Shown here: positions 19,110-62,363 of the stretch, in pieces
How positions within the stretch are numbered: the stretch's first letter is position 1
Layout of the letters: every line of letters begins with the position of its first letter
Virus record (IMG/VR): IMGVR_UViG_3300028048_000001
Location: 1 to 64,000 of that record
Strand: one strand, 5' to 3'
DNA length: 64,000 nucleotides
From: a virus
Lineage: Duplodnaviria > Caudoviricetes
The notes under the pieces: model-generated
Database searches by the model: none
Seen by the model: the letters and a program-made list of their open reading frames with translations, nothing else
What the model was told of the DNA's origin: nothing
Translations under genes and position numbers: made by a program

Positions 19110-20057
19110 ATGAAGAAAACATTAATTACTCACAATTCCGTGTTCCATGCAGATGAGGTAATGGCGACAGCAATTCTGTCATGCCTCTACGATAGAAGTA
19201 ATGTTACAATTTTAAGAACCAATAAAGTAGATAAATATGTAAATGATGAAAACACGATTATCTATGATATTGGATTTGGAAAATACGATCATCATCAGAA
19301 AGGGGGAAACGGTGTAAGAAAAAATGGTGTTCCTTATGCTGCATGTGGCTTGATCTGGAACGATTTTGGAAAAGATCTTATTGCTAAAACGGCATCCAAT
19401 ATGGGTATCGAATTAACATATGAAGAAGTTAATAAGATCTTTGGAATTATCGATACTTTGATTATTCAGGGTATCGATGCTAATGATAATGGTTACAGGG
19501 CAAAGAATTATGTAAAGCCCGAGGTTAACCATTATAATATCAGTAACATCGTTTTTTCTCTCAACGCCATTAGTTATGACGGCGGTGTAACTTCATCACA
19601 GCAGGATTTCAATTTCATTTCTGCTGTTGATATCTGCAGTAAGATTCTGATTGCAAATATCAGAAAATATGCAGATACTGTAGCAGCAGAAAAGCATCTG
19701 CAGAAATTAATCGATTCAAGAGAGCATAAAAGAATTCTTGTATTAGACAAATATGTTCCTTGGATCAAATACGTCGTTGAAAATAATGACGATATTTGGT
19801 ATGTTGTATTCCCTTCAGCTAGAAATGCTGGAGAATATAACATGCAGACTGTTCAGATCTCTGTAGATTCTTTTGATCAGAGACATCCTGTTCCTAAAGA
19901 ATGGTGGGGTGGAAATACAGATACTCTGCCTGAAATCACTGGTGTACAGGGAGCAACATTCTGTCATCAGAGTAACGGTTTCCTCACTGCAGCACGAGGG
20001 CTAGAAGATATGATGAAGCTCGCTTCTCTTGCTGTAGAAGAAAAAGTTCATGTGTAA
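19110..20057 (+). CDS. MYG1 family (DHH-like) exonuclease
   Basis: THNSVFHADE, DIGFGKYDHHQ, GIDANDNG, ATFCH...GF motifs. Confidence 0.88.
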   Translation: MKKTLITHNSVFHADEVMATAILSCLYDRSNVTILRTNKVDKYVNDENTIIYDIGFGKYDHHQKGGNGVRKNGVPYAACGLIWNDFGKDLIAKTASNMGIELTYEEVNKIFGIIDTLIIQGIDANDNGYRAKNYVKPEVNHYNISNIVFSLNAISYDGGVTSSQQDFNFISAVDICSKILIANIRKYADTVAAEKHLQKLIDSREHKRILVLDKYVPWIKYVVENNDDIWYVVFPSARNAGEYNMQTVQISVDSFDQRHPVPKEWWGGNTDTLPEITGVQGATFCHQSNGFLTAARGLEDMMKLASLAVEEKVHV

Positions 20058-20459: not shown

Positions 20460-23400
20460 ATGAAAGATATTATTTTAATAGAAGCTTCTTCTAAGAGTAC
20501 TTATCAAAGAAAATATAAATGTCCTTATTGTGAACAGAAGTTTGAGAGAACTAAACTTCATATACATATTCAAAATAAACATGAAGAATTAATTCCAGAA
20601 GGATATACAGCTCTTAGAGTTGCTTTTAATACTATAAATAATAAAACCGAAGGTCATTGTATTATGTGTGGAAAAGTCTCTGATTGGAATGAAGATAAAG
20701 GTAGATATGAGAGACTTTGTAACGATCCAAAGTGCCATGAAGCATATAAAAGAATGGCTGCAGAAAGAAATAAAAAGAAATATGGTACAGAAAGATTACA
20801 ATCTGACCCAAGATATGCTGAAGAAGTTCAAAGAAAAGCACTCCAAGGAAGAAGAATAGCAGGAAAATATAAATTTACCGATGGTGGCGAAATAGATTAT
20901 CTGGGAGCTTATGAAAGAAGATTGCTTGAATTCATGGATAAAGTAATGAAATGTAAATCCGAAGATATTGCTGCTCCTGGACCTACAATAAAGTATATGT
21001 ATCAAGATAAAGAGCATCTTTATATTTCTGATTTTTATTATATTCCATATAATTTAATTATTGAAGTTAAAGATGGAGGAGATAATCCTAATACAAATCC
21101 TGCATTGAGGGGATATAAAACAGAGAGACAAGAAGCTAAAGAAGCTGCTGTAAAAGCTACTGGAAAATATAATTATGTAAGACAGACTAATAACGATTTT
21201 AGCCAAATTATGAGTATCATGGCAGTATTAAAATATAATTTACAAAATGAATATTATGATCCTATAATGAGAATTAATGAAATGGTTTTAATTGAACAAT
21301 TAGAATCAAAATTATCTCTTAATAAATTTCTTAAAGAAAATTCAATAGATGATGCTTATGAACTTTATAGTTGGATGCATAAAAATATTAAATATAAAAG
21401 TACTGGAAGATATCAATCTCCTGAAGAAACTATAGAAAAATTATCTGGAGACTGTCATGATCAAGCTGAATTAGCTTATAGATGTTTAATGAAGCTTGGA
21501 TATCAAGTTGGAAAAGTTTTTATGGTTGAATATTATGATTATGAAAAACCAGGTGGAAGAACTCATACTTTAACATATTTCTTATCAAATAATAATTATT
21601 ATTGGTTTGAAAATGCATGGGGAAATAAAGCTGGAATTCATAAGCTTAAAGGTAAACAATTTATTGAAATACTAAAACCAGTATTTGAAGCTTGGGATTG
21701 GTCTGGAAAATGTGATAAATTATATTGGACTCCATTTAGAGCAAATCCTAAATATGGTTGTGATCTTGGAGAATATGTTGGATTATTAACTCCAGAAAAA
21801 GAACCAAAGAAAAATATTTATTATAAAGATAAATCTTTAAATGAATCTATTCTTTTTAATGAAAAAGATATTTATTATAATAAAGATAAATTTGATTCTG
21901 GAGAAATTAATCTTTGTTTTATTACTGGTCATTCTGGATCTGGTAAATCTACAATGGCTAGAGATATGCAAAAAAATAATGTTGAGCATTATGAACTTGA
22001 TGATCTTCAATGCATTAAAGATTATTTCACAATGTCTCAATTAAAAGAATATGGAGATCTTATTTATTCATATTTTAATGGTCCTGGTAAAAAGTTTTAT
22101 ATAACTTATCAAGAGTTAATGGATAATAAAATTCCAGGATCAGAATATGAAGATAAACTATTTCCAGGATTTGTCCATTATTCTATGCAATATGCTAAAT
22201 CTCATAAAGATAGGAAATATGTAATTGAAGGGGTTTGGCTATTCTGTAATGATGATAATGGATCTCCTTGGTTTAAACCAGAAGAGTTTAAAGATTATGC
22301 TTTTTATATTAAAGGAACTTCAATGATAGTTTCTAAATGGAGAGCAGCAAAAAGAGATGCAGAAAATAATGATAATTCTTTTGATAGATTAAGATATTCT
22401 TCTAAAGATTTCTTTTTTAACAATTGGAAATGGTATTTTATAGATGAAAAACAAATAAACAGATTTAGAAATTATTTTAAAAAGATATTAGTAAATGAAT
22501 CTGTATCTTTATATAATTCTGATTCGGATATTAATTATAATCAATTATCTAAATATAAGATGATAATAGTTGGAGAAATTCATAATAATCGTATGATTAA
22601 TATGTATAGAAAATTATTATCTGCTTATAAATTTGATTATTTGATTGCAGAGTTTGCTGATATAGATAGATCGTTTACAAGAGAAGAATTAAAACAAAAA
22701 ATGGATAATGCTATGAATGGATCGTATAATTATGATCCATCTAGGCCTTGTGATTATCAATATAATTATTGGATTTATAAATTGGCTTATGATTTTGATA
22801 TTCCTCTTATTGGATGTAATCCTGTAAATAAGAAATATAAAAATATGAATGATGAAGATAAAAACAGAGAAGCTTATATGCTTTCTGTAATTAAAGAATT
22901 TGAATCTAAAGGAAGATGTCTTGTTCAATTAGGAGATCATCATTTAAGAAGCATTCCTATTACAAAAGAATTTTTAGAATATTGTAATGATACTACAGAT
23001 GACAGAGGAATATATAAAAATATAGATGATTTAGTTGTAGAAAATTCAAGTCCTATTTGGGATGAATATAATAACAAACCAAATGTTTTATTATTAAGAG
23101 TAAAAAGTGAATATGATAATGAGATTAATTTTATGAAAAATATAAATGAATCATTATTATATGAATCAGATGATGCTTCTAAATTAGATAAAAATTTTAA
23201 GCATAAATCTGGTATAGAATTTGATATTGTTGATATTAGAGATAAAAAAGTAAAAGGAAATATTGATGAAATAAAAGGAAAATATAAAGATTATTTTAAA
23301 GGATTTGCTGCTTTTGAAAAAGGAACCGATAACTTTGCTGGATTTATAAGGGTTTGGCCAAATTGGGTTATGAATGAGAAATATAAAGGTAACCAAATTT

Positions 23401-24224
23401 CTCCAATCGAAGTTAAAAAGAAATATAGAGGATATGGATTAAGTAAATTATTGATTCAAAAATCTATAGAAAAATTTGATGCGAATATGCTATTTGTTGC
23501 TAAAGATAATGAAGTTGCAATAAATCTATATAAAAAGATGGGGTTCAAAATAAAAGAAGAATTTGATTGGAATAATGAGCCTCATTATATAATGACAAGA
23601 GATACAGTTATTAAATTAAGTGAGGTAACTGAAGATATGTCTGGAACTATTGGTGCAGCTCTTGCCCCTACTACTAAAGGAGCTAATATTATTAAACCTT
23701 TACCAGTTCCTACACCATATATATCTGATCCGGATCACTATTTGGTAATAAATACAAGACCTGATCAGAAACTTTCATATTCTATTACTAGAGATCCTCT
23801 TCAATATACTCTTTATTCTGTAGATCCACAAGAAAAAGGATTTTATAAAGTATTTAAATCTGATAAAGGGAAGATCTCTAAAAATTATCTTACTTTTAAA
23901 ATTAAAGATAAGAAAAAAGCTAAAGAATTATATGAAAACCTTACAGAACTTTATAAAAGAAATCTTACTTTTATGGATCATGGATTAAGTTCTGATGTTA
24001 ATGAGAATTATATTTATTCTTATTTAACTGACGGTAATAATATTATAACTCCAGATCAAATCTTATTTGATAATAGATTCGAATTAGTTAGAAGTTTTGA
24101 AGAATCTGTAAATTATGAAAGTTCTAAAATATACAACTATCTTCTTAATGGATATTCTATAGAAGATGAATTAAATATATTATCTGAACAGGTAAAGGAA
24201 TTGGAGGAAGATATTAATGAATGA
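20460..24224 (+). CDS. Multi-module protein: C2H2 Zn finger + PD-(D/E)xK nuclease-like, transglutaminase-like, P-loop kinase-like, unknown alpha/beta module, GNAT acetyltransferase
   Basis: CPYC...H...H; SDF...IIEVKDG; GDCHD...HT...ENAW; GHSGSGKST; IVGEIH...LGDHH; V...YRGYGLS...N..AINLYKKMGF. Confidence 0.8.
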   Translation: MKDIILIEASSKSTYQRKYKCPYCEQKFERTKLHIHIQNKHEELIPEGYTALRVAFNTINNKTEGHCIMCGKVSDWNEDKGRYERLCNDPKCHEAYKRMAAERNKKKYGTERLQSDPRYAEEVQRKALQGRRIAGKYKFTDGGEIDYLGAYERRLLEFMDKVMKCKSEDIAAPGPTIKYMYQDKEHLYISDFYYIPYNLIIEVKDGGDNPNTNPALRGYKTERQEAKEAAVKATGKYNYVRQTNNDFSQIMSIMAVLKYNLQNEYYDPIMRINEMVLIEQLESKLSLNKFLKENSIDDAYELYSWMHKNIKYKSTGRYQSPEETIEKLSGDCHDQAELAYRCLMKLGYQVGKVFMVEYYDYEKPGGRTHTLTYFLSNNNYYWFENAWGNKAGIHKLKGKQFIEILKPVFEAWDWSGKCDKLYWTPFRANPKYGCDLGEYVGLLTPEKEPKKNIYYKDKSLNESILFNEKDIYYNKDKFDSGEINLCFITGHSGSGKSTMARDMQKNNVEHYELDDLQCIKDYFTMSQLKEYGDLIYSYFNGPGKKFYITYQELMDNKIPGSEYEDKLFPGFVHYSMQYAKSHKDRKYVIEGVWLFCNDDNGSPWFKPEEFKDYAFYIKGTSMIVSKWRAAKRDAENNDNSFDRLRYSSKDFFFNNWKWYFIDEKQINRFRNYFKKILVNESVSLYNSDSDINYNQLSKYKMIIVGEIHNNRMINMYRKLLSAYKFDYLIAEFADIDRSFTREELKQKMDNAMNGSYNYDPSRPCDYQYNYWIYKLAYDFDIPLIGCNPVNKKYKNMNDEDKNREAYMLSVIKEFESKGRCLVQLGDHHLRSIPITKEFLEYCNDTTDDRGIYKNIDDLVVENSSPIWDEYNNKPNVLLLRVKSEYDNEINFMKNINESLLYESDDASKLDKNFKHKSGIEFDIVDIRDKKVKGNIDEIKGKYKDYFKGFAAFEKGTDNFAGFIRVWPNWVMNEKYKGNQISPIEVKKKYRGYGLSKLLIQKSIEKFDANMLFVAKDNEVAINLYKKMGFKIKEEFDWNNEPHYIMTRDTVIKLSEVTEDMSGTIGAALAPTTKGANIIKPLPVPTPYISDPDHYLVINTRPDQKLSYSITRDPLQYTLYSVDPQEKGFYKVFKSDKGKISKNYLTFKIKDKKKAKELYENLTELYKRNLTFMDHGLSSDVNENYIYSYLTDGNNIITPDQILFDNRFELVRSFEESVNYESSKIYNYLLNGYSIEDELNILSEQVKELEEDINE

Positions 24225-25836
24225 TCATATGTATATAGTATTACCTCCAGATATTGATAATTTAGAAGAATTAGAATATTGGAAATCTAAATTTGATTCT
24301 ATGACATATTATCAGAGAAAAGTATCTAATGATATTTCAATTGAGAATTTTGGATCTGATAATATTACAAGATACAACAAACTTAAATCTAAATTATTAG
24401 ATAAAATAGATCCTAATATCAATTTAGGAGAAATAAGTCCTGAAGATACTAGATTATCTTTGGAAGATATATTAAGAGATTTAAATGAATCTTCTTCTGA
24501 AACTCCTACTTTAGTGGTCAATGATATAGAGGATAAAATTATTAAAGTTAAAAAAGCAGAATCAGAAGGATTAATTATTATGATAGATCCAGATTTAGGA
24601 TTTTCTGATGATTATCCAGAAGATTCTATTGCTAAGCTTAAAGATAAATGGAACAAATTTCAAGGATTATCATATGATAAAAGACAATTATCAAATGATA
24701 CTGCTAAAGATATATTAGGATTTGATAATTATTCTCTTTATGATATTATTTTAAATAAACATATTAAGAGAATTGATATAGAAGATTCAACACCTTCTGA
24801 TGATAATCCAGAAGAAGATTTTGATATATTAGATAAAGCAAGACCATATTTTACTCCTTATGAATTAGGTTCTGATTTTAAATCAGCTGATCCAATAACA
24901 GAAGCTGGTGGACCATATAAATGGTCTAGATTATTGGAAACTCTTTATGTAGAACTTAATTCTACTTATGATAAAAATAAAATAAAATATATAAAAGAAT
25001 CTATTTATGAATTAGGATGGAATCCAGAAATTCCTTTCTCTTTAGAAACTGCATGTAAAGTTGGTATAAGACATAATAGTTATAATAATATTAGTTTTAT
25101 AGATTTAACAGAATCTGGCATACCAGCAGTAGAAGAAATTCCAAATAACGCTACATATGAGAATTTGAAAGATAAAATAGTTCCGGTATTTGTTGTATTA
25201 GTCTCTGGAAATTCTCTTGCTGGAGCTAGTATAAAATGGTTTACAGATTCTCAATGGAGTCATATATCTATGGGATTTGATTCTAAATTAAAGACTTTAT
25301 ATTCATTTAATTTTTATATAGATGAATTTAAAGTTACTAATGGATTTTCTATAGAAGGAAAAGATTTATATTTAAAGCAAAATAGAAATATGAAAATTAA
25401 AACATATTGTTTATTTGTTACACCAGAACAAAAAGAAAGTATGTTAGAAGCTATTGATTGGTATATAAAAAATAAAAATAAAACTAGATATGATTTTGGA
25501 AATATATTCAAAATTACATTAAGAAGTAATAAAGATTCAAATGATAAAGATAAAATGATATGTAGTCAATTTGTATATTCTATTTTAAAATTAGCAAATT
25601 TTAAAATGAAAATTACAAAAAATAATAGTAAAATAACCCCTTCTGATATAGATAAATTAGCAAATGATGCAAGATTTTATTGCATGTATGAAGGGAAATT
25701 ATCTGAATATAATAGTAATGCAATAGACAATATGATTAAAAAGATTATTGTTACATTACCATTAGAGCAATTTGATATAGAAGAAAATACAGAATTTAAA
25801 GATTTATATAATAAAGCTATGATGCTATTAAATTAA
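24217..25836 (+). CDS. Protein with C-terminal permuted papain-like (YaeF/YiiX) domain
   Basis: IKWFTDSQWSHIS...YDF...MICSQFV...ITPSD. Confidence 0.75.
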   Translation: MNDHMYIVLPPDIDNLEELEYWKSKFDSMTYYQRKVSNDISIENFGSDNITRYNKLKSKLLDKIDPNINLGEISPEDTRLSLEDILRDLNESSSETPTLVVNDIEDKIIKVKKAESEGLIIMIDPDLGFSDDYPEDSIAKLKDKWNKFQGLSYDKRQLSNDTAKDILGFDNYSLYDIILNKHIKRIDIEDSTPSDDNPEEDFDILDKARPYFTPYELGSDFKSADPITEAGGPYKWSRLLETLYVELNSTYDKNKIKYIKESIYELGWNPEIPFSLETACKVGIRHNSYNNISFIDLTESGIPAVEEIPNNATYENLKDKIVPVFVVLVSGNSLAGASIKWFTDSQWSHISMGFDSKLKTLYSFNFYIDEFKVTNGFSIEGKDLYLKQNRNMKIKTYCLFVTPEQKESMLEAIDWYIKNKNKTRYDFGNIFKITLRSNKDSNDKDKMICSQFVYSILKLANFKMKITKNNSKITPSDIDKLANDARFYCMYEGKLSEYNSNAIDNMIKKIIVTLPLEQFDIEENTEFKDLYNKAMMLLN

Positions 25837-25872: not shown

Positions 25873-28338
25873 TTATTTCTGTTCAGTATTTTGCTGATTT
25901 TGATTAGATTGTTGCTGGTTATTTTGTTGATTATTTTGATTTTGCTGTTGATTGTTGTTTTCATCATTTTTTGGCTTTTTATATAAAGATTTATAAAGAG
26001 CCATAAATTGTCTATAAGCTGCCCAAGTAGCAGTCATTTTTGCAGATAAAGCATAAGTCATATACTTAAAATATCTAGTAATTCTAGCATTTGCTTCTCT
26101 TATTCCACTGCCACTAGTACCTTGAGATTCTTGAGCATCTGCACCAACATTAATCTGAGGAGCTTCATTAATATTAATAATTTTTTCACTAGTAACCAGT
26201 CCAAAATGCTCAGCAAGATTAAATTTAAAATCATCAAATTCAATAGCAGAATTATTCTGACTTTGCATATTATTTCCAACTTCAGAAGCTGGAGTTCCTG
26301 TAACATTATTTATTGTAGAATTTGTGGTATTATTTAATTTCTTATCATCTTCAACTTTATCAGCAGTTTTCTGTTTATTTTGTTGAGCAGACTTAAATTG
26401 CTCATTAATAAATTTTCTATCTTCTTTAATATTACCAAAAGTAGTACCATCAAATCCATTTCTTATTATCTCATCAACGAATTTAAAAGTTTGATCTTTT
26501 CTAAATCCTGCTTGATTAATAGGAATTGGTTTATCTTTTTGAATATAATTAGTATAAAACCCTTCTGATACTTTTGCACTAAAGGTTTTATTATCATCTT
26601 GTTTTGGAGTAATGTCTAATGCTTTATAGATAGCATTTTGCATATCAGCATCTGTATTCAAATATTCAGCATTATCATCATATTTAATTCCATTTAATCT
26701 TCTAGTAAATTTATCAATATCATAACATCTCCAATCAGATACTGTTGTAGATGCAAATTGAATTTCTTTAATTTTTCCTCTATTTCTGTTCCAAAAAGGT
26801 GTATCTATTCCTTTTGTAACAGTTTCAATAACTGTTTGTCTAAATTTATCAAACATTTGATTGAATCTATCAATAAATTGAGGAGCTCCAGATACTTTAC
26901 TGTCTGTATTACCTATATTGCCACTACCATTAGTGACAGTAGTTTGTACAGAATCTGCTTTAGCTTGAGCAGTATTAGCTGTTCCAGCAGTAGCTGTTGG
27001 CTGAGAAGCTCCTGTTTCATCTTCTGTTAAATATTGAATAATAGTAGAATTATATTCATTTTCTAACCAATATTCTTCTGTTATTGTAAGCATTGATTCA
27101 AATTGTTCTTCTAATATTCTAGCATAATAAACATCATCTGTAATTTCAACAGAAGATTCAGTAGTAGATTCTTCTATTCCTAATTGCCTTAAGATAAGTC
27201 TATGTGCTAATGATTTTACTCTAGCAGAATCACCAGTATTATAATCAAAAATTCTATTAATTCTTAATTCTTTAGATTTAAGAATATTTATATTAGCACT
27301 AATTACTTGCTGTACAGTATTAATAATTCTTCCTATACTAGAAACTATTCTATTAGTAATTTCTTGATTCTCTTGTGTACCAGTAGATATATTTTTACTA
27401 ATATTAGATTTAATTTGTGATTCTGCATTGTTTAAAGATTTTATTATATCATTATAATTCTTATCAATAGAATCTATATCTTTCTTAATATTATCAACGA
27501 TCTCTTTTCCTCTTGTAAGATTATCTAATGCAAGAAGATAAAGATCAACAGTAAGTCTTGTGGGTTTACTATCATTAGAGCCAAAAGCTTTCTTGGCAAC
27601 TTCGATAGAAGAATTTACAGGATTAGATACATCATATGAATATCTTCCAAACATTTTTGAAAGCATTGTTTCTTTTTCTTCTTCAAGAAAATCGGCAAGA
27701 GATTCAGAAGCTTCTAAATCTTTTCCAACAGTTTTTGGATCTAATGTACCACTTTTATTATATCCATAAATATATTTATCTTTATAAACATAAGCATCAA
27801 GAGCTTTGGTTGCCATTTTTACAAGATTAGACCCAATAACAGAAGTATCTGGAAAGTTTTTATTCATCAAATCAGCAGTAGGCTCAATATCAGAAATCGT
27901 TAAAGTAGTATCAGCTTCTGTATTATTGTAAAGAGCTTGTCTAAGAATCTTAATTCTTTCATTTTGCCTAAATTTTTGTTCTACTTTATCTTCTTTGTTT
28001 TTATTAAATGATTCATTAATTCTTTTAATTAATTCTTTAAATGCAAATACAATAATTCCACAAACTTTTTTAATAGCACCTACTACTTTTCTTACAATAT
28101 TAGAAACAGTATTTGCAATATTATTAATAAATTCTGATTCATTAACATATTCAATATTATTAAGATTATTTAACTCAATTATAGATTCTCTCATAATCTG
28201 ATTAAATTGAGTAATTTGTTGAATCATATAAGCTTCTGAATAAATAGAATAAGATAAATCATAAGATTTATATTCAGGAATCTTGAAATAAGAATTAGAA
28301 CCTTCTTTAAGAAGGGTGTAATTCAAGTTAAGTCCCAT
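25873..28338 (-). CDS. Putative virion (internal head) protein
   Basis: Helical, multiple xxES sites, Q/N-rich tail, late-type motif at 28365-28376. Confidence 0.55.
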   Translation of the reverse strand: MGLNLNYTLLKEGSNSYFKIPEYKSYDLSYSIYSEAYMIQQITQFNQIMRESIIELNNLNNIEYVNESEFINNIANTVSNIVRKVVGAIKKVCGIIVFAFKELIKRINESFNKNKEDKVEQKFRQNERIKILRQALYNNTEADTTLTISDIEPTADLMNKNFPDTSVIGSNLVKMATKALDAYVYKDKYIYGYNKSGTLDPKTVGKDLEASESLADFLEEEKETMLSKMFGRYSYDVSNPVNSSIEVAKKAFGSNDSKPTRLTVDLYLLALDNLTRGKEIVDNIKKDIDSIDKNYNDIIKSLNNAESQIKSNISKNISTGTQENQEITNRIVSSIGRIINTVQQVISANINILKSKELRINRIFDYNTGDSARVKSLAHRLILRQLGIEESTTESSVEITDDVYYARILEEQFESMLTITEEYWLENEYNSTIIQYLTEDETGASQPTATAGTANTAQAKADSVQTTVTNGSGNIGNTDSKVSGAPQFIDRFNQMFDKFRQTVIETVTKGIDTPFWNRNRGKIKEIQFASTTVSDWRCYDIDKFTRRLNGIKYDDNAEYLNTDADMQNAIYKALDITPKQDDNKTFSAKVSEGFYTNYIQKDKPIPINQAGFRKDQTFKFVDEIIRNGFDGTTFGNIKEDRKFINEQFKSAQQNKQKTADKVEDDKKLNNTTNSTINNVTGTPASEVGNNMQSQNNSAIEFDDFKFNLAEHFGLVTSEKIININEAPQINVGADAQESQGTSGSGIREANARITRYFKYMTYALSAKMTATWAAYRQFMALYKSLYKKPKNDENNNQQQNQNNQQNNQQQSNQNQQNTEQK

Positions 28339-28687: not shown

Positions 28688-29152
28688 TTATTTTTCTATC
28701 ATTTTTTTTTCAGATTCATCAAGAACAGCAAGAATATATTCTGCTGCTTCTTTAAGTTTTTTGCTGGTTTTTTGATCAACTTGTTTATTAAGTTTTTCGC
28801 CAGTTTTTGGATCAAATCCTCTTTTTCTTAATTCTCTACCAACAGTTTGACCATACATTTTCTTTGTATCTTTGCCTGCTGACAAATAAGTCATACCATC
28901 TGTAGATTTTAGACTTTTATCGGCTCTTTCTAGTGATTGTTTTCTTGTCTGTTGTAACTCTTCATTTGAACAATTCTTTATACCATCTCTAAGTTTATTA
29001 ACTGTTTTTTTTCTTGTATTCATAACAATATCCGCTACACTTTTTGATAAGCCAGTATTTGGTGCAGATAATGTATTTCTAATTTGCCTATCACTTCTAT
29101 TTTCATTTAAGTATTCACCTAAACTACTCTCATTTACATTAAATATAGACAT
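28688..29152 (-). CDS. Putative internal head protein; may extend to 28542 via a shift at an A9 run
   Basis: MSIFNVNES N-terminus; LKEAAEYILAVLDE motif shared with 58645-59262. Confidence 0.65.
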   Translation of the reverse strand: MSIFNVNESSLGEYLNENRSDRQIRNTLSAPNTGLSKSVADIVMNTRKKTVNKLRDGIKNCSNEELQQTRKQSLERADKSLKSTDGMTYLSAGKDTKKMYGQTVGRELRKRGFDPKTGEKLNKQVDQKTSKKLKEAAEYILAVLDESEKKMIEK

Positions 29153-31672: not shown

Positions 31673-34600
31673 TTAAGTAGTATACATTGATTGAAGAATA
31701 GATTGTTTAAGTGAAAAAAGACGATCAAAATTATTAATATCTTCAGGAGTATAGGTCTCTCTACCGCATCTAGCTAAAGTATTAGCATTGATAAGAGTAT
31801 CTCTTTGCATAGATACAGCAGAATTAAAATATCCATCATTTCTAGATATATACATTACATTTCTAGGGTTAAATTTCTCCCAAGCAAGTTTAATAAAAGT
31901 TTGATTAATTGGAAGAAGAATATTTAAAACATCCAATATCTTCACACAGGTCGCTAATCTGTGCAGTTCTCTTATGAACTTCTTCAGGTGTTACCCGAAT
32001 GTTGAGACTATATCTTCCTATACAATAAATATATAGGCACGCCCATTTTGAATTTGCTTAAATTCTCAAGAGGTACACTCATCTCTCTTTAGTCGTTGAA
32101 CCTTCTTCTGTTCTAGAAGCTTGGCTGCTGATCATCCAATCCTTAATAGTGTAACTATATCAAAATCCTATTATGGTTTGCCATTTATATATCCCTATAT
32201 AAATTTAGTCATTAAGGCTCTAAGGATTTTCCAGCAATTAGAGCGTGTTAGGCAATGTTATTTACCATCGAAATCTGCTGCCAACAAAGGCAAAGGTTGA
32301 AGGGGAACTGACATTGTATATGTTTCTGTAAATCCTACGCAAAACATACTTAATATACTTCCATAACTACGCTTTATTCACATAGAATCGTTGATATTAT
32401 CTCTCTTTCTATGCAGTTCTCTTATGAACTTCCCTATATTTCTATAGGATACTAGACTATATCTTTATCTGCCAATTAGATATTCACCATTTCGATTTAA
32501 AGGGTCTTACTTCCCTAAATGCCCTACCTACTTAGGCTCTAACTTCAAGATTATCTATTATGAGATATTCCTCTACAAATATCTGATATTGTGGAAATTG
32601 AAAAATTTGGAAAAAACTTTTCGGTTATTTCTTTATAATTATATCCATGCTCATTAAGATTTCTAATTAAATCAGCATCTTCATCTGTAAGTCGATGAAG
32701 ATTAGCAGGATTCTTTTTATATGAATCATAGTAAGATTTTGGTTGATAATTTGGATCATAATAAACCTTATTTAAACAAATATTTTGTATAGATGTACCA
32801 GATATATTTTTATACCCCATATTTTGTATTTGACTATAGCTATAACCTTGATCATGAAGATCTCTAATTTTATTAGCCTCATCATAATTAAGTTTATTAC
32901 AAGTTCTTACATTATTATTTTCAGCATGTATAACATTTTCTTTCATGGTGGCCCATTCAATATTAGAGTATAAAGATCCATCTGGCATAACTTTATTTAC
33001 ACAATTATTCGTTTTATCAAAATCTTTATGATTTACTGTTAATTGATCCATATTATTTATAGGATTAAATTTTTTAAGAACAAGTCTATGTATACTATAT
33101 TTCTTTTGTCCATTTTTACAATTATCTGCTGCTAAACAGACATATTGATATCCATTTGGCCGAAGATTAGGTTTAATCATTTTCCCAGATCTAATATTCA
33201 TTATTCTTCCATAGTTACTTACAGCATAATAATTTGGAAGAATATCTTTAGCTTCATTATCGGTTAAAACTTCAAATGTTTCACTTTCTTGAAGATCATC
33301 TGGTAAGAAAAATATGGCTTGTTTCATTGATGTATCATAGAGTCTTGTTCCTTTTGGACAAACTAATCCACCAAAATTACTATTTCCATTTTTTGTAACA
33401 TATTCTCCATTTTCATTATATCTTCCACTATCAGTTTCTTGAGTTGATCTCATAATATATTCTCCTTATATTTTTTAAAATTAAAATATAAAGAAAATAA
33501 TAATCTATTCAGATAGTCGTTGAACCTTCTTCTATTATTATAGAAGCTTGGCTGCTGATTGTCCATAAAATGGAGTTCCCAGCAATTAGATGAATTTTAA
33601 TATATGATATAATAACGTATTGGCATATCATATATTCGACATTATTCCCTTTATATTTTAATTATTTTTTATAACAATAATTAAAGATAACAGAGGGAGT
33701 CCGAATATCGTAGGGTTCCGATTTATTATTACGCTTAAACCAGGTAAACCTTTCTTCTTCTCATTATCTATTATACTTTGTATTATACTGCTTATTCTAT
33801 CTACTGGCTCAATTGTTGCTTTATACCATAATTGATGAGCTTCATTAGGACTCATATTATATGATCTGCATAATATATTTTTTATTCTTTGTTCAAGCAT
33901 TATTGCAAGTCCTATTACAGGTAATGTAACCTCATCAATTCTTAAATCGGGATTCTGAACTATAACATTTCTACTACTGAAGTTATATCGTCCTCCCAAT
34001 AAACATCTAAAATCTCCTTTTTTACCACTTAATATAGTTTCCAGCTCTGTATATAATTCCATAAATTTTTTCTGTAAATTATATAATTGCTGATTCTTTA
34101 TTTTTGGCTCTCTTTGTATTTTGGTTTTATTTCTATTTATTGTAGTTACTAATTTATTCATCATAGTATACATGGCATTTGTAGGTTCATATGTCATATT
34201 TCCATCTTTAATATCAAATGGTCTTAATAACGTAGTAAATACTGGTATACTATGTGTAAATACTATATTTCTGTGTTCATAAATATCATCATAATTTTCT
34301 TTCTTAGTAGGCCTTTTTCGTAAATAGAAATCCATTATTTCATCAAATCTTTTTACAAATTCAACCATACCAATTCCAAAAAACGGTTCATCTTTATTTT
34401 TAGTTTCAATTGCTTTACTAGATAAAGGAGTTACTATATCTGAAATATCTAAAATATTTTCTAATTTAGTTCTTTTAACTCCTTGTATAGTAATACCTTT
34501 ACCTAAGAAAATATCTATCTTTTTATAAAATGCTGGGTGTATAATAACAAAGGGATCTTTTAATACCATCCACCCAAAATAACTAAAATTATCATCTACA

Positions 34601-35004
34601 TATTCACATAAATGACCACATCTTGGACAACGTAATCCAGCGTTTAATCTTCCTTTTAAACCACCATCATCAGTACAATGACAACGATATCTATCTATAA
34701 AAGGATTTACATCTGCCAAAGTTTGTCCAAACCTTCTAGAAAATAATCCATCTTCTGCTTTTAAGTCTTTCTTAATATTTCTTCCAGAAGGAGCAACTTC
34801 AAATCCATTTCCAGAATCTATATCAAGTTTTCTTTCAGCATCAAAATCTATATATTCTATATAAGATTCATATTCATAGTTTTCACTATGAGGATATGTC
34901 ATTGAAGTTGATACTACATCTTTTTCATCATAGTGAAGAAAATTATTTTTATTGTGAGAATCTTCAAACAAAGATCCATATTTAATTTTTTCACTCATTA
35001 TCAT
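31673..35004 (-). CDS. RNA polymerase beta'-like subunit (probably non-virion RNAP), spliced from exons 35004-33707, 32369-32264 and 31933-31673; 554 aa
   Basis: GLFSRRFG, Zn finger, GKKG...GGRYNFSSRNVI; joined exons read NRNPTI-SYGSIL...LLAADFDG-DVLNI in frame. Confidence 0.9.
31934..32263 (-). mobile_element. Group I intron 2 (330 nt, no ORF) inserted at DFDG^D
   Basis: 5' splice site after U with P1 GGT|AA/TTGCC; P10 AACAT/ATGTT; core AATTGCTGG, AATCAGCAG-like, GTTCAACGACTA, GATATAGTC; terminal G. Confidence 0.9.
32370..33706 (-). mobile_element. Group I intron 1 (1337 nt) encoding an HNH endonuclease
   Basis: P1 CGAT|ATT/AATGTCG with U-G pair; core AATTGCTGGGAA, AATCAGCAGCCAAG, GTTCAACGACTA, GATATAGTC; terminal G; exact junction inferred. 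Confidence 0.88.
32551..33453 (-). CDS. Intron-encoded NUMOD4-HNH homing endonuclease
   Basis: YAVSNYGRI, IHRLV, VNHKDFDKTNN, NIEWAT..EN; two C-terminal HTH-like repeats. Confidence 0.9.
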   Translation of the reverse strand: MRSTQETDSGRYNENGEYVTKNGNSNFGGLVCPKGTRLYDTSMKQAIFFLPDDLQESETFEVLTDNEAKDILPNYYAVSNYGRIMNIRSGKMIKPNLRPNGYQYVCLAADNCKNGQKKYSIHRLVLKKFNPINNMDQLTVNHKDFDKTNNCVNKVMPDGSLYSNIEWATMKENVIHAENNNVRTCNKLNYDEANKIRDLHDQGYSYSQIQNMGYKNISGTSIQNICLNKVYYDPNYQPKSYYDSYKKNPANLHRLTDEDADLIRNLNEHGYNYKEITEKFFPNFSISTISDICRGISHNR

Positions 35005-36482: not shown

Positions 36483-37715
36483 TTATTTTATTTGATCTTG
36501 TGATATAGGTTTATTTGTAGAAGGGTCTATAAAATAAATTCCATTAATAGGTTTTAATATTTTTTTATTATTACATAATGGCATTGTTAAAGATTCTTCT
36601 ATAGATTTTCCAGATCTGATTCTTTTTGATACAGTTCCTGGGCCAAATCCTATAATTTTATCCCATTGATTATATGAAAATGTATCATCATTATATGTAA
36701 TTAATTTAGGTTTTCTAGAATCAGATACAGGTTCATATAAAGATTTATCCACAGACCAATTTTGTCTAAAATGCCTATCATAAATAAGACCTCTATCTAA
36801 TCCTGTGATTTTTGACCAATCTGATATTGTATGAGATTCTCCATTAGAATCTGTAAGAATTCTCATATATGCATTAACGGGTTCTGTTAATGCTCTTTCA
36901 TCAGGCCATCCATCTTCTTTTCTAGCATATAAAGTAAATGCAGAGATTCCAATTATTGGTTCCCATTCAGCAGCAGTATGAGTAATTCCATTTAGAGTAA
37001 GCTTTATATTATTTCTTCTATTATTTGCTTGAGTAACTCCATCTGTCCATCTACAATTTTCCGGGCAATAGTTTCCATCATTATTTATTCTATCTATACT
37101 TAATCCTGGTTTGTAACCATTAGCCATAGCCCATCTACAAAATGTATCAACACCTGTATCTGGATTTAACCATTCATCACAAATTGAAATTCCTCTTCCA
37201 CCATAATCTTTATATGAATTACGATTAGGGTTATAACATCTTGATTTCATATTATGATATATTTCATATATTGGAGTACCATGCCAACCATGTTTAGTTG
37301 ATACTTCAATTTGAGCACATCCACAACTTTTAGTATGTCCATTTCTTAAATTATGGCCTCTTACTATAACATTATTTCCACAATCACACTTACAAAGCCA
37401 TTGTGTTTCTCTTCCAGAAGTTCCAATAAAATCTTCTGCTCTTTCCAATACTGTAAGTTTACCAAATTTTTTTCCAATCATATTAATTAATTTATTAGAC
37501 TTACATTCTTTACAACAATGAACATTACCATTGAGAAGATTATGGTGTATAACTTCTATAGTATTGCCACAATCACATTTACAAAGCCATCTAGGTTCAT
37601 GTCTTCCAGTAGATGGATAAATATAGTCATCTATTCTTTTAATTACAATTAATTTATCAAATCTTTGATCTTTTAAATCTCTCCATCCTCTTTTTTTAAC
37701 AAATTTAAATTTCAT
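36483..37715 (-). CDS. Free-standing HNH-type homing endonuclease with WLCKCDCGN repeats
   Basis: Two WLCKCDCGN units, MKSRC, YGGRGI, SIDRINNDGNY.PENCRW; start revised to MKFKF. Confidence 0.85.
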   Translation of the reverse strand: MKFKFVKKRGWRDLKDQRFDKLIVIKRIDDYIYPSTGRHEPRWLCKCDCGNTIEVIHHNLLNGNVHCCKECKSNKLINMIGKKFGKLTVLERAEDFIGTSGRETQWLCKCDCGNNVIVRGHNLRNGHTKSCGCAQIEVSTKHGWHGTPIYEIYHNMKSRCYNPNRNSYKDYGGRGISICDEWLNPDTGVDTFCRWAMANGYKPGLSIDRINNDGNYCPENCRWTDGVTQANNRRNNIKLTLNGITHTAAEWEPIIGISAFTLYARKEDGWPDERALTEPVNAYMRILTDSNGESHTISDWSKITGLDRGLIYDRHFRQNWSVDKSLYEPVSDSRKPKLITYNDDTFSYNQWDKIIGFGPGTVSKRIRSGKSIEESLTMPLCNNKKILKPINGIYFIDPSTNKPISQDQIK

Positions 37716-37897
37716 TTTATATATAATATCTCCTTTATTTTTATAATATATAGTTATAAGTACATTAAAAAATAATTTAAATAACATATTTGGATAGTTT
37801 AATAATTAATATAGATAAAAATAATGGTGCTAGGAATAAATCCTAGCACCATTATTATAAATATCAGCAAGTGCTAAGTAATAATTAATTTTGACCT

Positions 37898-39652
37898 TTA
37901 CGGTTGACCTTTACGGATTCCCGACCGATTTATAATTTCGACGCGAGACTGTACCGGCTGATACTCGTCAACTAAGAATCTCTCAAATGCAGTAACAGCA
38001 GGAAGAGCAGGATTCTGAACGTTTCTAAGCTCATTGGAAACATACATCTGATAATCGTAGATTCTATACGTTACTCTGTTGGAGTTGTGTGGCATTAAAA
38101 GTACTATTAAATCGTTTTGCCACCTGAGTTTATCACTGCCAATGAACTGATAGACTCTCTTATCACTGGTAACAACAGTTCTCTTGAAGTCAAGATCCAC
38201 AGGACCAATGCTGCTCGGGCTTGTATAAGTATACTCAATAGGAGTAATCTTTCTAACAAGATCCGGATCACCGAAAATGGTAATAACCATATTAGGATCA
38301 TTCAGAACCTGAAGCATTCTGGTAACCTCAGAATCAAATGCATCAAAGAACATGCTGTGTCTCCAGGTAAGAGGATCAAGAGCATATCCAACAGGCGGAG
38401 CATAATCAAACTCCATGTAACCTCTACTATTCTCAGGAAGTCTATCATAAGACTCATCAAGATACTGCTTAATCTTATCATCCTTGTAGTTAGCAAGAGT
38501 GGTCTTAAGCAGGCTCATAATCTTGGTAAGCTGATTAACCTGATACAGAGCAGCAAGATCTTTAACCTCTTCAGGACTAATGGTAACACTCAGCGGAATA
38601 GCATTAGGAATCTCAATAAGTTTAGTATCAACCTTCCACTTAACAGTGCAGGTGTCAAGCATATGGTTAGCAGTATCAAGTTCTGCACTAAGCATAACTT
38701 TCTTCACTTCACCCTTAGCAGAGATAACAGTAAAGATATTCTTATCCATAGTGCCTGCAAGAACATCAGAGATCTTCTTGTTAGCATCAGCAGACTCTCT
38801 CACAACAAGCTGAACAGGAGCATTAAAGCTTCTCTCATACTGATTGTAACCAGGCTGGAACAGAATATTCACTGGGAACCAAACATTCTCAACTTCACCC
38901 TCATCAGCAGCAGTAGCAATAGGTCCATTTGGACGAATAAATCCATCAGCATCAGGCATGATATCACCCTCAGCAATATACATCTTCTCAATCTGTATAG
39001 CGGATATATGAGTCTTAATGCTAAGAGCATCAAGCTTAGTACCACCACAAAGAGCAAGAACATCGGTCTCACCAATCTCAGGAAGTTCAAGCTCAATATT
39101 ATAAACAGGATTAGAAGCATCAATTGCAGGGGTCATCTTATTCTGATCGGTGAACATATCGATCTCGTTACCCTGAGTATCAACAAGAATTCTCTTTTCC
39201 ATACTCATGGTGAACTTAGGACCTTCAGCAACAACTTTCTGAATAGCACCCTTATCGAAGACCATATTCATAAGAATATTCTTATGGACAGGGAAAGTCA
39301 TACCGATAACCGGGTTATAATCAGCCATATCAGCATGCTCAAAGACAGCTTCAACATCGTTCTCAAACTGTTGTTCCATCATTGCATACTGATCTTCAAT
39401 ATAGCCAGGATCATTCATGAAAGGATCATTGGTATTCTCATCCATGAAATTACTGCAGAAGAATTCTTTAAGAGCTTCTTTAGCTGCAGGTCTACGAAGA
39501 ACCTTTTTCGGCTCTTCAAAAATATCCATACCAGACTCATTAAGCAGGTTCTTAGCAAACTCTGCGAAAGATTGGACATAGTTAGTCATAGGATCTTTAG
39601 AGTAAGAACCACCAACAAAACCAGTCTTGGTAGAAAGCTTACCAATAGGCAT
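37898..39652 (-). CDS. Probable major capsid protein
   Basis: 584 aa, markedly higher GC and strong codon bias typical of a highly expressed gene, strong RBS, late-type motif at 39787-39798, terminator downstream; identity inferred. Confidence 0.7.
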   Translation of the reverse strand: MPIGKLSTKTGFVGGSYSKDPMTNYVQSFAEFAKNLLNESGMDIFEEPKKVLRRPAAKEALKEFFCSNFMDENTNDPFMNDPGYIEDQYAMMEQQFENDVEAVFEHADMADYNPVIGMTFPVHKNILMNMVFDKGAIQKVVAEGPKFTMSMEKRILVDTQGNEIDMFTDQNKMTPAIDASNPVYNIELELPEIGETDVLALCGGTKLDALSIKTHISAIQIEKMYIAEGDIMPDADGFIRPNGPIATAADEGEVENVWFPVNILFQPGYNQYERSFNAPVQLVVRESADANKKISDVLAGTMDKNIFTVISAKGEVKKVMLSAELDTANHMLDTCTVKWKVDTKLIEIPNAIPLSVTISPEEVKDLAALYQVNQLTKIMSLLKTTLANYKDDKIKQYLDESYDRLPENSRGYMEFDYAPPVGYALDPLTWRHSMFFDAFDSEVTRMLQVLNDPNMVITIFGDPDLVRKITPIEYTYTSPSSIGPVDLDFKRTVVTSDKRVYQFIGSDKLRWQNDLIVLLMPHNSNRVTYRIYDYQMYVSNELRNVQNPALPAVTAFERFLVDEYQPVQSRVEIINRSGIRKGQP

Positions 39653-39786
39653 AATTTAATCCTCCTTGTGATTATATAACTAGAATGAAGGACGTTAAGG
39701 CAATCTAGTTACTTCAAAAATATATTTTTTATTTATTTTTTATTATCAAAATACATAGGAGCTTAGAGAGTTACTCCCAAATATTT

Positions 39787-46751: not shown

Positions 46752-46979
46752 TTAATTCTCCTTTTTTATTGTATATAATGATAATATTCCTGAATTTTTT
46801 GTAACAATAATAGATTTTTTATTTTTATGAAAATTGGATAAATTTATATATTTTCTTATTAATTCATTATACTCCTGATCAGTATATTCTGGATTATGAT
46901 TTTTACAATATTTGTCTAAATACATTTTACCACATTTAGTATTTATTTGTATTGCAGATCTAAATTGTTTTTCATTCAT
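46752..46979 (-). CDS. Hypothetical protein
   Basis: Operon-coupled ORF. Confidence 0.65.
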   Translation of the reverse strand: MNEKQFRSAIQINTKCGKMYLDKYCKNHNPEYTDQEYNELIRKYINLSNFHKNKKSIIVTKNSGILSLYTIKKEN

Positions 46980-47475
46980 CTTTATACTCCCAATTATTTG
47001 AAGTTCTTAAAGAGCAAGTGGTACAAGGTGAATTGTATTGATATTCTATTTCATTTTCCCATAATCCATTATTTTTACATGTTTTACATGTTTTTCTTAT
47101 AATTATACCATTTTCGATCATAATTTCATAATATAATTCATTAATCAAATTAATTGTTTCATAATTAAACGTAATAGATTTATTTTTTGTACTAAAAGAA
47201 TAATCTTGTAAATTAAAATTATTAATATCAAATGTTTGATTTTCTTTTAAATTAATAAATAAATATTCTGATCTTATTGTAAGATCAATTTCTTTTTTAT
47301 TTTTATAATTACAATAAATTTGAATCATATCATGAGTTACAACAAGTGGAGTTGTACTAAATAATTTCCATCTATGCAATAATGCAATATCTTGAGAATC
47401 TTGAGAACTAGTAGAATGAAAACCAAGTTTTTTAAATTTTCTATAAATATTAATTCTTTCTTTACTAAGTGCCAT
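46972..47475 (-). CDS. Hypothetical early protein with C-terminal Cys cluster
   Basis: CKTC...PCTTC...W; AGGAGG RBS; early-type motif at 47513-47529. Confidence 0.75.
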   Translation of the reverse strand: MALSKERINIYRKFKKLGFHSTSSQDSQDIALLHRWKLFSTTPLVVTHDMIQIYCNYKNKKEIDLTIRSEYLFINLKENQTFDINNFNLQDYSFSTKNKSITFNYETINLINELYYEIMIENGIIIRKTCKTCKNNGLWENEIEYQYNSPCTTCSLRTSNNWEYKDE

Positions 47476-62099: not shown

Positions 62100-62363
62100 T
62101 TATTTTTTATTTATAAATTCTATAGCTTTTCTATCTTCTTTAAATTCTTTTCCAATAAAATCTGATGCAGCTTTTCTTTTTGTTTCATCAAAAGAACCAA
62201 CAACAGAATCAATTAATCCAAACCCAACATCTCTTCTTTTTGTGTAATTGGTTATCATTGTTCCACAACATTCTATCCCATAAGTTAATAATCCAATAAT
62301 TAAATGATCCATATTTACCTTTTCTGTAATTTTATTTAAAAAATCATTCACAATATGTTTCAC
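62100..62363 (-). CDS. Hypothetical early protein
   Basis: GTG start; early-type motif at 62411-62427. Confidence 0.55.
   Translation of the reverse strand: MKHIVNDFLNKITEKVNMDHLIIGLLTYGIECCGTMITNYTKRRDVGFGLIDSVVGSFDETKRKAASDFIGKEFKEDRKAIEFINKK

Follow-up and report, generated by a model that had tools for sequence, protein, structure and literature searches.

A multi-enzyme protein of a rumen jumbo phage carries a head-protease-type glutamate motif at its module joints and is probably cut inside the phage head

P0001 is a 1254-residue protein of a cattle-rumen jumbo phage (genome, 274 kb) that, by sequence, combines a virion-type DNA nuclease and five unrelated modules in one chain. Its gene occupies positions 20460-24224 on the plus strand of the window, the 64,000-nucleotide stretch of DNA that was analysed, and the frame and its stop-free translation agree with those in a preliminary description of this DNA. 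The modules are shuffled among homologues, and the joints between them, three of the five modelled with low confidence, share a glutamate motif with the major head protein and the prohead protease. Because the joints share this motif with the capsid protein and the capsid protease, P0001 is likely to be divided into its separate enzymes within the head of the phage. On balance, we lean towards an explanation of the whole in which a nuclease and a swappable string of enzymes are packaged, cut by the S77 prohead protease and delivered.

Which enzymes does the chain contain? Profile and fold searches identify a nuclease, a transglutaminase-like enzyme, a P-loop kinase, a Tiki-like protein and a GNAT acetyltransferase. 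The N-terminal module F0 (20484..21281, plus strand; aa 9-274) comprises a C2H2-type zinc finger, a second four-Cys site and a PD-(D/E)xK nuclease, and ends in R-I-N-E. F0 matches the phage 'endonuclease' family phrog_15137 over aa 19-205 (E 1e-39), and a sequence search for relatives of solved structure returned none. C21, C24, H36, H41, C67, C70, C87 and C92 are invariant in 20 diverse homologues, as are D191, E202 and K204 of the catalytic motif. F0 is preceded by eight residues, MKDIILIE|A (20460..20483, plus strand; the bar follows the Glu), which end in hydrophobic-x-Glu and possibly form a short leader. Two homologue alignments show little or no variation at M1 and E8. Leaders of the T4 capsid-targeting type are 10-20 residues long, end in hydrophobic-x-Glu and direct their protein into the prohead. 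The case for a leader role in P0001 is weak, because hydrophobic-x-Glu shows no genome-wide enrichment at N-termini (13 observed, 10.4 expected).

The second module, TG (21282..21845, plus strand; aa 275-462), is predicted to be a transglutaminase-like, papain-fold cysteine enzyme that retains its catalytic cysteine (Cys332 in GDCHD). It matches the Pfam families Transglut_core at aa 293-357 (26.2 bits; cut-off, 23) and DUF553 (22.8 bits; cut-off, 20.5), and its best Foldseek match is the cysteine protease CPR-C4 (E 4e-5; TM 0.58 on the target). The P-loop kinase-like module F3 (21846..22499, plus strand; aa 463-680) contains the Walker A sequence GHSGSGKS at residue 490; Pfam P-loop matches are weak, the Walker A/P-loop region covers aa 479-520, and the fold resembles those of the Pnkp1 kinase and the adenylate and UMP-CMP kinases.

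The fourth module, F7 (22500..23150, plus strand; aa 681-897), had been described as an unknown module with GEIH and GDHH motifs. Both motifs are present, at residues 705 and 825, but the module is no longer without an assignment, given that its model places it among the Tiki/ChaN/EreA/HopBA1-like hydrolases. The seven top VIA matches of its AF2 model (pLDDT 95) all belong to the Tiki/ChaN/EreA/HopBA1/RRSP superfamily (Z 7.7-9.8: ChaN, 9.8; HopBA1, 8.9; EreC, 8.4; PMT C1, 8.4; RRSP, 7.7), and the next match scores 6.3. Foldseek returns the same superfamily set weakly (E 3e-3 to 0.18). In the Tiki/TraB/ChaN/EreA superfamily, the signature is a pair of G-x-x-H motifs that flank a conserved Glu. 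An alignment of F7 relatives displays the pattern G-E-x-H, E, R-E and G-D-x-H-x-R, in which G25, H28, E51, G145, H148 and R150 (module numbering) are invariant and E26 and D146 nearly so. By model and motifs, F7 is thus predicted to have the Tiki/TraB/ChaN/EreA superfamily fold. The F7 module of P0001 matches none of the curated Pfam models of this clan, and 31 aligned relatives include weak Pfam matches to TraB_PrgY_gumN (six), Cofac_haem_bdg (three) and Erythro_esteras (two). F7 also exists as stand-alone proteins of 211-228 aa.

The GNAT module (23151..23633, plus strand; aa 898-1058) matches Acetyltransf_1 at aa 948-1029 (43.1 bits; cut-off, 20.7), with an overall GNAT call of aa 948-1035. 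The last module, C/F9 (23634..24221, plus strand; aa 1059-1254), is strand-rich and had been taken for a distinct C-terminus. Instead, it is a conserved module found in most of 121 homologues and followed by further modules in most, so that the family has no fixed end. C/F9 has no match in the PDB, the Atlas or cultured phages.

The preliminary description had placed domain borders at INE (aa 272-274), LNES (460), VNES (678), INES (895) and LSEVTE (1053). All five motifs are present and coincide with the borders of domains that were detected independently of the motif. Examined one by one for fold and family, the modules are separate domains, and three of the five joints lie in low-confidence AlphaFold stretches (pLDDT <50 at aa 262-285, 458-465, 678-694 and 1049-1089). 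Moreover, the ends of BLAST alignments against 120 homologues cluster at aa 278-283, 457-464, 678-688, 894-896 and 1051-1057. Joint 2 (LNE|S; 21837..21848; aa 460-463) and joint 3 (VNE|S; 22491..22502; aa 678-681), both on the plus strand, each coincide with a low-confidence stretch and a cluster of alignment ends. Joint 4 (INE|S, then LYE|S; 23142..23153, plus strand; aa 895-898) falls at the end of the last helix in the confident F7 model, in a region that is poorly modelled in the long fold. Joints 1 and 5 depart from the wording first given to them. Joint 1 (21273..21308, plus strand; aa 272-283) contains INE but no NES, and reads INE|M, then LIE|Q and LE|S. Relatives have [IV]NE|S at this joint, and in 49 homologues N273 is invariant and E274 nearly invariant. 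At joint 5 (23625..23636, plus strand; aa 1056-1059), LSEVTE is present, but the joint proper is VTE|D followed by MSGTIG, and every joint into C/F9 reads hydrophobic-x-E|[SD]-M-S-G-T-I-G. The P0001 joints generally follow the form hydrophobic-N/x-Glu and then Ser, Ala or Asp, with L, I or V at P3. The conserved '...[IV]NE' could instead form a tail with a structural role in the nuclease domain.

The modules are exchanged among homologues, of which a single search returned 673 protein clusters (690-2100 aa). The modules of 121 homologues are arranged in at least 45 different orders; F0 always comes first, and F3 is found in nearly all. This orthologue comparison, which had been proposed earlier, bears out a variable module content behind a conserved N-terminus. 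In one homologue (P0002), the GNAT module is 82% identical to that of P0001 between flanks of 98-99% identity; in another (P0009), F3 is 50% identical beside an F0 of 91%; and a third (P0003) lacks exactly F7, the module after joint 3. Cassette-sized differences between homologues stop at the Glu motif, and 'empty' tandem joints (VNE|SVLNE|S) are also seen. The nuclease-headed family occupies at least 284 IMG/VR loci, with proteins of 254-2067 aa and a cargo of 0 to 1800 residues. A nuclease domain that closes with [IV]-[NH]-E and leads into a cargo of 100-1800 aa is present at 80 IMG/VR loci; the cargo-free forms stop at the end of the nuclease, '...RINK'. The long form was found in no cultured phage of the searched collection.

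Such shuffling would also arise if P0001 were an uncut, 'polyvalent' protein that tethers several enzymes, with joints that are flexible linkers kept for exchange by homologous recombination; the joints could be conserved mainly for that purpose. In this vein, the modules carry their own conserved joint halves, and identical joint sequences turn up in many different combinations. The codons at the Glu sites are nearly identical (AAT GAA TCx) and would provide microhomology, although codon bias in DNA of 25% GC gives the same result. Furthermore, polyvalent proteins are in some cases packaged without being processed, as is the N4 virion RNA polymerase (PMC5512222). We nevertheless regard an uncut chain as unlikely, given that recombination leaves the invariant Glu, the hydrophobic P3 and the Ser or Ala at P1' unexplained and that the motif extends to proteins that are not modular.

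Where else does the motif occur? [ILV]NES is found three times in P0001 against 0.08-0.11 expected, a count reached by 3 of 20,000 shuffles. The window contains eight copies (1.6 expected), confined to P0001, its 539-aa, 821-aa and 154-aa neighbours and the major head protein. The genome contains 14 (6.8 expected), nine of which lie in P0001, these three neighbours, the major head protein and the S77 prohead protease. For the broad motif hydrophobic-x-E-S, the count across the genome hardly exceeds expectation (111 observed, 91 expected). The boundary statistic is circular, and its motif-blind version yields only about 3-fold enrichment. Similar sites outside P0001, including an LNES near the N-terminus of the head protein, had been pointed out before and are confirmed at residue 37 of that protein and in the three neighbours. 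The 821-aa protein (25873..28338, minus strand), for which family searches returned no match, has VNE|S at residue 65 and INE|S at 107, and its orthologues, only 26% identical, retain hydrophobic-x-E-[SA] at residues 33-66. The 154-aa protein (28688..29152, minus strand), picked up by the motif scan, begins with MSIFNVNE|S.

The major head protein (37898..39652, minus strand; phrog_20655, E 3e-29) carries LNE|S at aa 37-40 (nt 39533-39544). All 29 aligned orthologues (40-96% identity) keep the motif Glu, and P3 is mostly L or I. P2 varies in the head proteins (N, T, E, Q, R, S, H or D), whereas joint 1 of the polyproteins almost always has N or H; the identity of the motif between the two substrates is therefore only partial, and a comparison of the two motifs across phages gave no clean covariation. 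The gene for the S77 (T4 gp21-type) prohead protease lies at G000:C1:261357-262232 on the minus strand, with the PF03420 Peptidase_S77 match at 261681-262124(-) (36 bits; cut-off, 27). Its product has IINE|S at residue 11 in an N-terminal extension, and IISE|S, SNE|S and LTE|S in a C-terminal extension that starts at the end of the catalytic domain, at about residue 184. Joints kept for recombination would make no sense in the head protein, in the protease extensions or at the N-termini of the 821-aa and 154-aa proteins.

The third neighbour offers a candidate for a different protease. The 539-aa gene (24217..25836, plus strand) overlaps the stop of P0001 by 8 nt and encodes a 91-aa leader ending in LNE|S (aa 89-92), followed by modules F4 and F1. 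Its residues 86-522 resemble the two C-terminal modules (aa 781-1219) of the polyprotein at locus L004, and likewise at L005 and L006, so that the match to related polyproteins begins three residues before its LNE|S; locus L003 has the same two-gene layout as here. These alignments point to gene fission or fusion at the LNE|S. F1 is a permuted, C92-like papain module that matches Pfam Peptidase_C92 weakly (20.2 bits; cut-off, 27) and also matches 'cysteine peptidase' genes of Fusobacterium phages. The protease that cuts the chain might accordingly be a papain-fold cysteine enzyme encoded in or beside it, either TG, with its CPR-C4 likeness and retained Cys, or the adjacent F1, acting in the cytoplasm or after delivery. 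A papain-like module lies within 6 kb in 27 of 45 cargo-bearing loci, and internal peptidases have been proposed for the processing of polyvalent proteins (Iyer et al., PMC5512222). However, the other 18 loci, which include chains of 1096-2067 aa, keep the joint motif with no papain-like module found within 6 kb, and the S77 protease was found in four of five genomes of such loci, including all three that are at least 90% complete. Cutting after Glu with a hydrophobic P3 is, moreover, the documented habit of the gp21/S77 family, and the motif is carried by the head protein and the S77 protease themselves. Self-processing is therefore improbable in our judgement; it would resemble that of MARTX toxins or of polyvalent proteins with internal peptidases.

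F0 is 34-36% identical to AR9 g233 and 33% identical to phiR1-37 g237, and the locus is syntenic with AR9 g231-g233, adjoining the baseplate wedge gene. By sequence and position, the P0001 gene is the positional orthologue of the small Zn-finger/PD-(D/E)xK nuclease of AR9-type jumbo phages. The stand-alone homologue of Yersinia phage phiR1-37, g237, is labelled 'phage structural protein' in GenBank, and this label is the sole wet-lab hint at the packaging of P0001. The nuclease homologue of Staphylococcus phage DC4 is not listed in the low-coverage virion proteome of that phage. Fusobacterium phages JD-Fnp1/4/6/7 have a distant culturable relative of the nuclease-headed family. Could P0001 rather be a non-virion, cytoplasmic multi-enzyme, acting for example in host DNA breakdown and metabolic takeover, with a motif shared by coincidence or a protease that acts outside the head? 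The fold of the nuclease has relatives among homing-type nucleases, and the Fusobacterium-phage relative carries the label 'gyrase'. Nonetheless, the 'structural' label of the phiR1-37 homologue, the place beside the baseplate wedge gene, which is kept from AR9 to the rumen phage unlike that of a mobile nuclease, and the clustering of the motif with the head protein and protease make a cytoplasmic role very unlikely. Virion-protein genes of phiR1-37 are mostly expressed throughout infection (PMC4848604), and timing would therefore not discriminate between the two.

We propose that a variable series of self-folding enzyme modules has been added to the C-terminus of an AR9-type nuclease. The chain would be built into the prohead using the nuclease domain or the eight-residue leader as a handle. 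The S77 protease would cut after each joint Glu, as it would trim the head protein at L-N-E|S and itself, and the freed enzymes (20-30 kDa) would stay in the head until they pass into the host alongside the DNA. Recombination at or beside the joints would add, remove or replace modules, and related phages would therefore deliver different enzyme sets. We infer packaging, cleavage by the S77 protease, ejection and the targets of the enzymes. Should the joints prove to be head-protease sites, a single gene would furnish a quickly exchangeable enzyme set that arrives with the DNA, a concrete mechanism for varied first-minute host takeover or counter-defence by uncultured gut and rumen jumbo phages. 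Giant-phage head proteases would then go beyond propeptide trimming to release several mature enzymes per chain, and the order of nuclease handle, hydrophobic-N-E|S and cassette would be a sequence rule for finding injected effectors in metagenomes. It would also suggest a natural design for putting foreign proteins into large capsids. More tentatively, jumbo phages of the AR9/phiKZ radiation may possess a general cargo-loading device, in which cassettes behind a head-protease site are packaged with the nuclease handle, freed and injected, and the site codons double as the recombination joint. One short motif would then couple delivery, release and cassette exchange, which would explain a family with such a range of cargo and amount to a phage equivalent of the MARTX or polymorphic toxin arrays.

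MARTX toxins are secreted Vibrio proteins whose swappable effector domains are freed by cuts between domains; they contain repeat regions and, internally, a cysteine protease domain that is activated by inositol phosphate. F7 has the fold of the MARTX effector RRSP, but a Pfam search of P0001 detected neither the cysteine protease domain nor the N- and C-terminal repeats, and the likeness goes no further than functional analogy. Among published concepts, polyvalent proteins and the multi-site processing carried out by giant-phage head proteases come closest. In the parts of their description that are relevant here (Iyer, Burroughs, Anand, de Souza and Aravind, 2017; PMC5512222), polyvalent proteins likewise carry many unrelated phage-encoded enzyme domains per chain, share GNAT, peptidase-like, nuclease and kinase domains with the P0001 family (and NUDIX with its relatives), display extreme domain mosaicism like the P0001 homologues and are similarly proposed to be capsid-packed and delivered with the DNA. 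Their processing is ascribed there to internal zincin-like or other peptidases, whereas P0001 has a head-protease-type Glu motif at every joint and no zincin-like peptidase detectable by Pfam search. The P0001 family differs further, as far as that account extends, in always being headed by one nuclease, a stand-alone core gene in AR9-type phages.

The proteases of T4, phiKZ, 201phi2-1 and SPN3US all cut after Glu in x-x-E motifs (PMC5694885). T4 IPI-III and Alt, which gp21 processes, are packaged in the head, injected and released by a hydrophobic-x-Glu cut, their short leader ending in the motif (PMC5694885); by analogy, the P0001 start MKDIILIE|A recalls the T4 capsid targeting sequence as a candidate leader. 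The T4 internal proteins are single-domain and cut once, unlike the multi-module P0001. The phages of phiKZ gp175, 201phi2-1 and SPN3US gp245 are related jumbo phages with multisubunit RNA polymerases, as here, and eject many head-internal proteins; their prohead proteases make x-x-E cuts, at several sites in some proteins, and trim their own C-terminus (PMC5694885, PMC10052503). The C-terminal self-cleavage sites of SPN3US gp245 (PMC5694885) are mirrored by the motifs in the C-terminal extension of the S77 protease here, and the SPN3US cleavage logo is described as favouring Ser at P1' (PMC10052503). P3 is L, I or V at the P0001 sites, as in T4, but A, S or G for the giant-phage prohead proteases. 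Self-cleavage aside, all identified cuts of gp245 in SPN3US remove N-terminal propeptides, with extra sites inside these. The P0001 sites lie between folded enzymes and, unlike those in gp245 substrates, would give several mature products from one gene.

The polyprotein is encoded by a single open frame of 1254 codons (window 20460-24224, plus strand) in a complete virus record of 274,241 bp with direct terminal repeats and ~25% GC, the first 64 kb of which form the window. Profile searches blind to the joint motif placed the phage 'endonuclease' family phrog_15137 at polyprotein residues 19-205 (E 1e-39), Transglut_core at residues 293-357, a Walker-A P-loop at residues 479-520 and GNAT at residues 948-1035. 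The preliminary description had named INE, LNES, VNES, INES and LSEVTE (residues 272, 460, 678, 895 and 1053) as motifs of the domain borders, and all are present at these residues; the observation of one open frame with motifs at domain borders is confirmed. The last of them is properly read as V-T-E/D (the slash denotes the presumed cut point), because homologue joints entering the C module, the last of the polyprotein, read hydrophobic-x-E/[SD]-MSGTIG.

Structure prediction adds a view of the joints and the modules. In the fold of residues 262-1254, pLDDT drops below 50 at residues 262-285, 458-465, 678-694 and 1049-1089, which correspond to four of the five joints, the first stretch starting at the cut end of the folded model. 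The remaining joint, which follows the Tiki-like module F7 (residues 681-897), falls where the last helix of the F7 model ends. F7 itself is predicted with a pLDDT of 95, and its seven best structural matches (Z 7.7-9.8; next match 6.3) are ChaN, two 'succinoglycan biosynthesis' proteins, HopBA1, the C1 domain of the Pasteurella toxin, erythromycin esterase and RRSP. Given this model and the conserved G-E-x-H, E, R-E and G-D-x-H-x-R, we read F7 as a putative hydrolase of the Tiki/ChaN/EreA superfamily. The closest structural match of the transglutaminase-like module is the CPR-C4 cysteine protease, and those of the P-loop module are polynucleotide and nucleoside-monophosphate kinases. For the C module, there was no PDB sequence match, no Atlas match and no homologue in cultured phages.

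The modules are shuffled extensively. One database search yielded 673 polyprotein homologues of 690-2100 residues, and alignments with them break at residues 278-283, 457-464, 678-688, 894-896 and 1051-1057, that is, at the five motif positions. When homologues were cut into modules and the modules were mapped back, 121 proteins displayed at least 45 distinct module orders. The Zn-finger/nuclease module F0 came first in every case, the P-loop and C modules were almost always found, and the GNAT, transglutaminase-like, Tiki-like and several unknown modules varied in presence and order. The expectation of variable content behind a conserved N-terminus was thus borne out. Exchange is also visible between individual proteins: the homologue P0002 is 97-99% identical to the polyprotein but only 82% in the GNAT module; P0009 shares 91% identity in the nuclease domain and 50% in the P-loop module; and P0003 lacks exactly residues 681-897, with I-N-E/S at the join. 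'Empty' tandem joints, VNE/SVLNE/S, are present among the homologues as well.

The split between two genes can also fall at a joint motif. The 539-aa gene (window 24217-25836, plus strand) overlaps the polyprotein stop by 8 nt and starts with a 91-residue leader that ends in LNE/S. From residue 86 on, three residues ahead of its LNE/S (residues 89-92), its product matches the last two polyprotein modules of three related phages. The same cassettes thus form part of the polyprotein in some phages and of a separate gene in others, and the division falls at a joint motif. Cultured Fusobacterium phages contain the same gene pair (e.g. JD-Fnp1, locus L123, 4956-6997) and could act as a test system; in JD-Fnp1, the nuclease-domain protein is mis-annotated as 'DNA gyrase subunit A', and the overlapping 'cysteine peptidase' starts with MSILKEIAE/S, a sequence resembling a T4-type capsid targeting leader.

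Where did the polyprotein gene originate? The nuclease domain occurs at 284 loci in IMG/VR, and in the 80 that were retrieved, the domain closes with [IV]-[NH]-E in almost every case and is followed by 0 to ~1800 residues of cargo. Cargo-free relatives (254-255 aa; L049, L055-L058, L060, L062 and L063) end in '...RINK' and a stop, where cargo-bearing relatives have 'RINE/S'; among the cargo of the long relatives are several GNATs as well as NUDIX, transglutaminase-like and P-loop domains. AR9 g233 (238 residues) and phiR1-37 g237 (236 residues) consist of the nuclease only, and the polyprotein phage keeps the AR9 gene order g231, g232 (baseplate wedge), g233. These nuclease-only forms and the retained gene order indicate that the polyprotein gene is an extended core gene rather than a mobile nuclease. 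A full-length MYG1/UPF0160-family exonuclease gene (window 19110-20057, plus strand; Pfam 8e-58) separates the polyprotein gene from the baseplate-wedge-like gene; AR9 has no gene at the corresponding place.

Which protease would cut at the joints? The [ILV]NES motif occurs three times in the polyprotein against ~0.1 expected, a count of at least three being reached in 3 of 20,000 shuffles. Its eight occurrences in the window (1.6 expected) are confined to five proteins, namely the polyprotein, the major head protein (residue 37) and the products of the three genes next to the polyprotein gene (539, 821 and 154 aa). Genome-wide, 14 are observed versus 6.8 expected, and a further carrier is the T4 gp21-type (S77) prohead protease (contig positions 261357-262232, minus strand), at residue 11. 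The looser hydrophobic-x-E-S is scarcely enriched genome-wide (111 versus 91 expected), and short N-terminal leaders that end in hydrophobic-x-E showed no enrichment when tested across the genome. A module-HMM boundary statistic (407 motifs at boundaries, 2 inside) was rejected as circular because the modules had been defined by cutting at the motif, and a motif-blind test on alignment ends gave only ~3-fold motif enrichment. That the polyprotein acts as an uncut polyvalent protein seems to us rather unlikely.

In head proteins of 29 related phages (40-96% identity), Glu is invariant at the aligned L-N-E/S position, the residue three before Glu is mostly L or I, and the middle residue varies. 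Covariation of this site with the joints gave no decisive signal because P2 and P1' differ between the substrates and follow phylogeny only loosely. The S77 protease has three additional x-E-S sites, beginning where its catalytic domain ends, a layout like that described for the self-trimming SPN3US and phiKZ proteases (PMC5694885). In the 821-aa neighbour, hydrophobic-x-E-type sites at residues 33-66 are retained in orthologues of 26% identity. Two small proteins (contig positions 265931-266734 and window 28688-29152, both minus strand) start with M-[ST]-I-F-N, have hydrophobic-x-E/S at residues 6-9 and may share a common short N-terminal leader. The head protein gene region (window 37898-39652) has 36% GC versus ~25% elsewhere and contains an antisense open frame of 520 codons (38117-39679, plus strand), probably a composition artefact. 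Near the head protein gene, a fragment of the beta subunit of a phage multisubunit RNA polymerase adjoins two HNH endonuclease genes (window 33658-35004, minus strand; 36483-37787; 32551-33453, minus strand).

The chief alternative to the head protease is an internal papain-like protease. The last module of the 539-aa gene product is, weakly by Pfam, a putative permuted papain (C92-like). However, 18 of 45 cargo-bearing loci are without a papain-like module within 6 kb, and S77 is present in four of five genomes with such loci; we regard self-processing of the polyprotein as quite improbable. Cleavage of the polyprotein by the head protease is the reading that we favour, by slightly better than an even chance. 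The preliminary interpretation is partly supported: modular swapping and the motif shared with the head protein hold, and packaging, cutting and injection are steps that we infer.

The label 'structural protein' of phiR1-37 g237 is the sole experimental hint toward a virion role; the available parts of the phiR1-37 literature contain no mention of g237, the low-coverage virion proteome of Staphylococcus phage DC4 does not list the nuclease homologue, and the paper on the JD-Fnp phages contains no proteomics. TTATATAATCA lies upstream of both the polyprotein and head protein genes but is not supported as a shared late promoter, its one-mismatch matches being at chance (25 observed, 21 expected). 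The upstream motif that stands out clearly, GATATTATAATAATGA, is found at other genes, most of them small. Across the whole genome, (G)ATATTATAATAATGA precedes about 40 genes, most of them small, by ~45-60 nt (5-fold enriched; e.g. upstream of window 46972-47475 and 62100-62363); it probably acts as an early or middle promoter and is absent from the genes of the polyprotein, the head protein and the 821-aa protein. A non-virion role of the polyprotein appears very unlikely to us.

In the open-access literature, we found no chain of enzymes linked through head-protease sites. The T4, phiKZ, 201phi2-1 and SPN3US proteases cleave after Glu (PMC5694885), and the SPN3US protease makes several cuts in some proteins (PMC5694885, PMC10052503). 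Polyvalent proteins (PMC5512222) and multi-site processing by giant-phage proteases come closest among published ideas.
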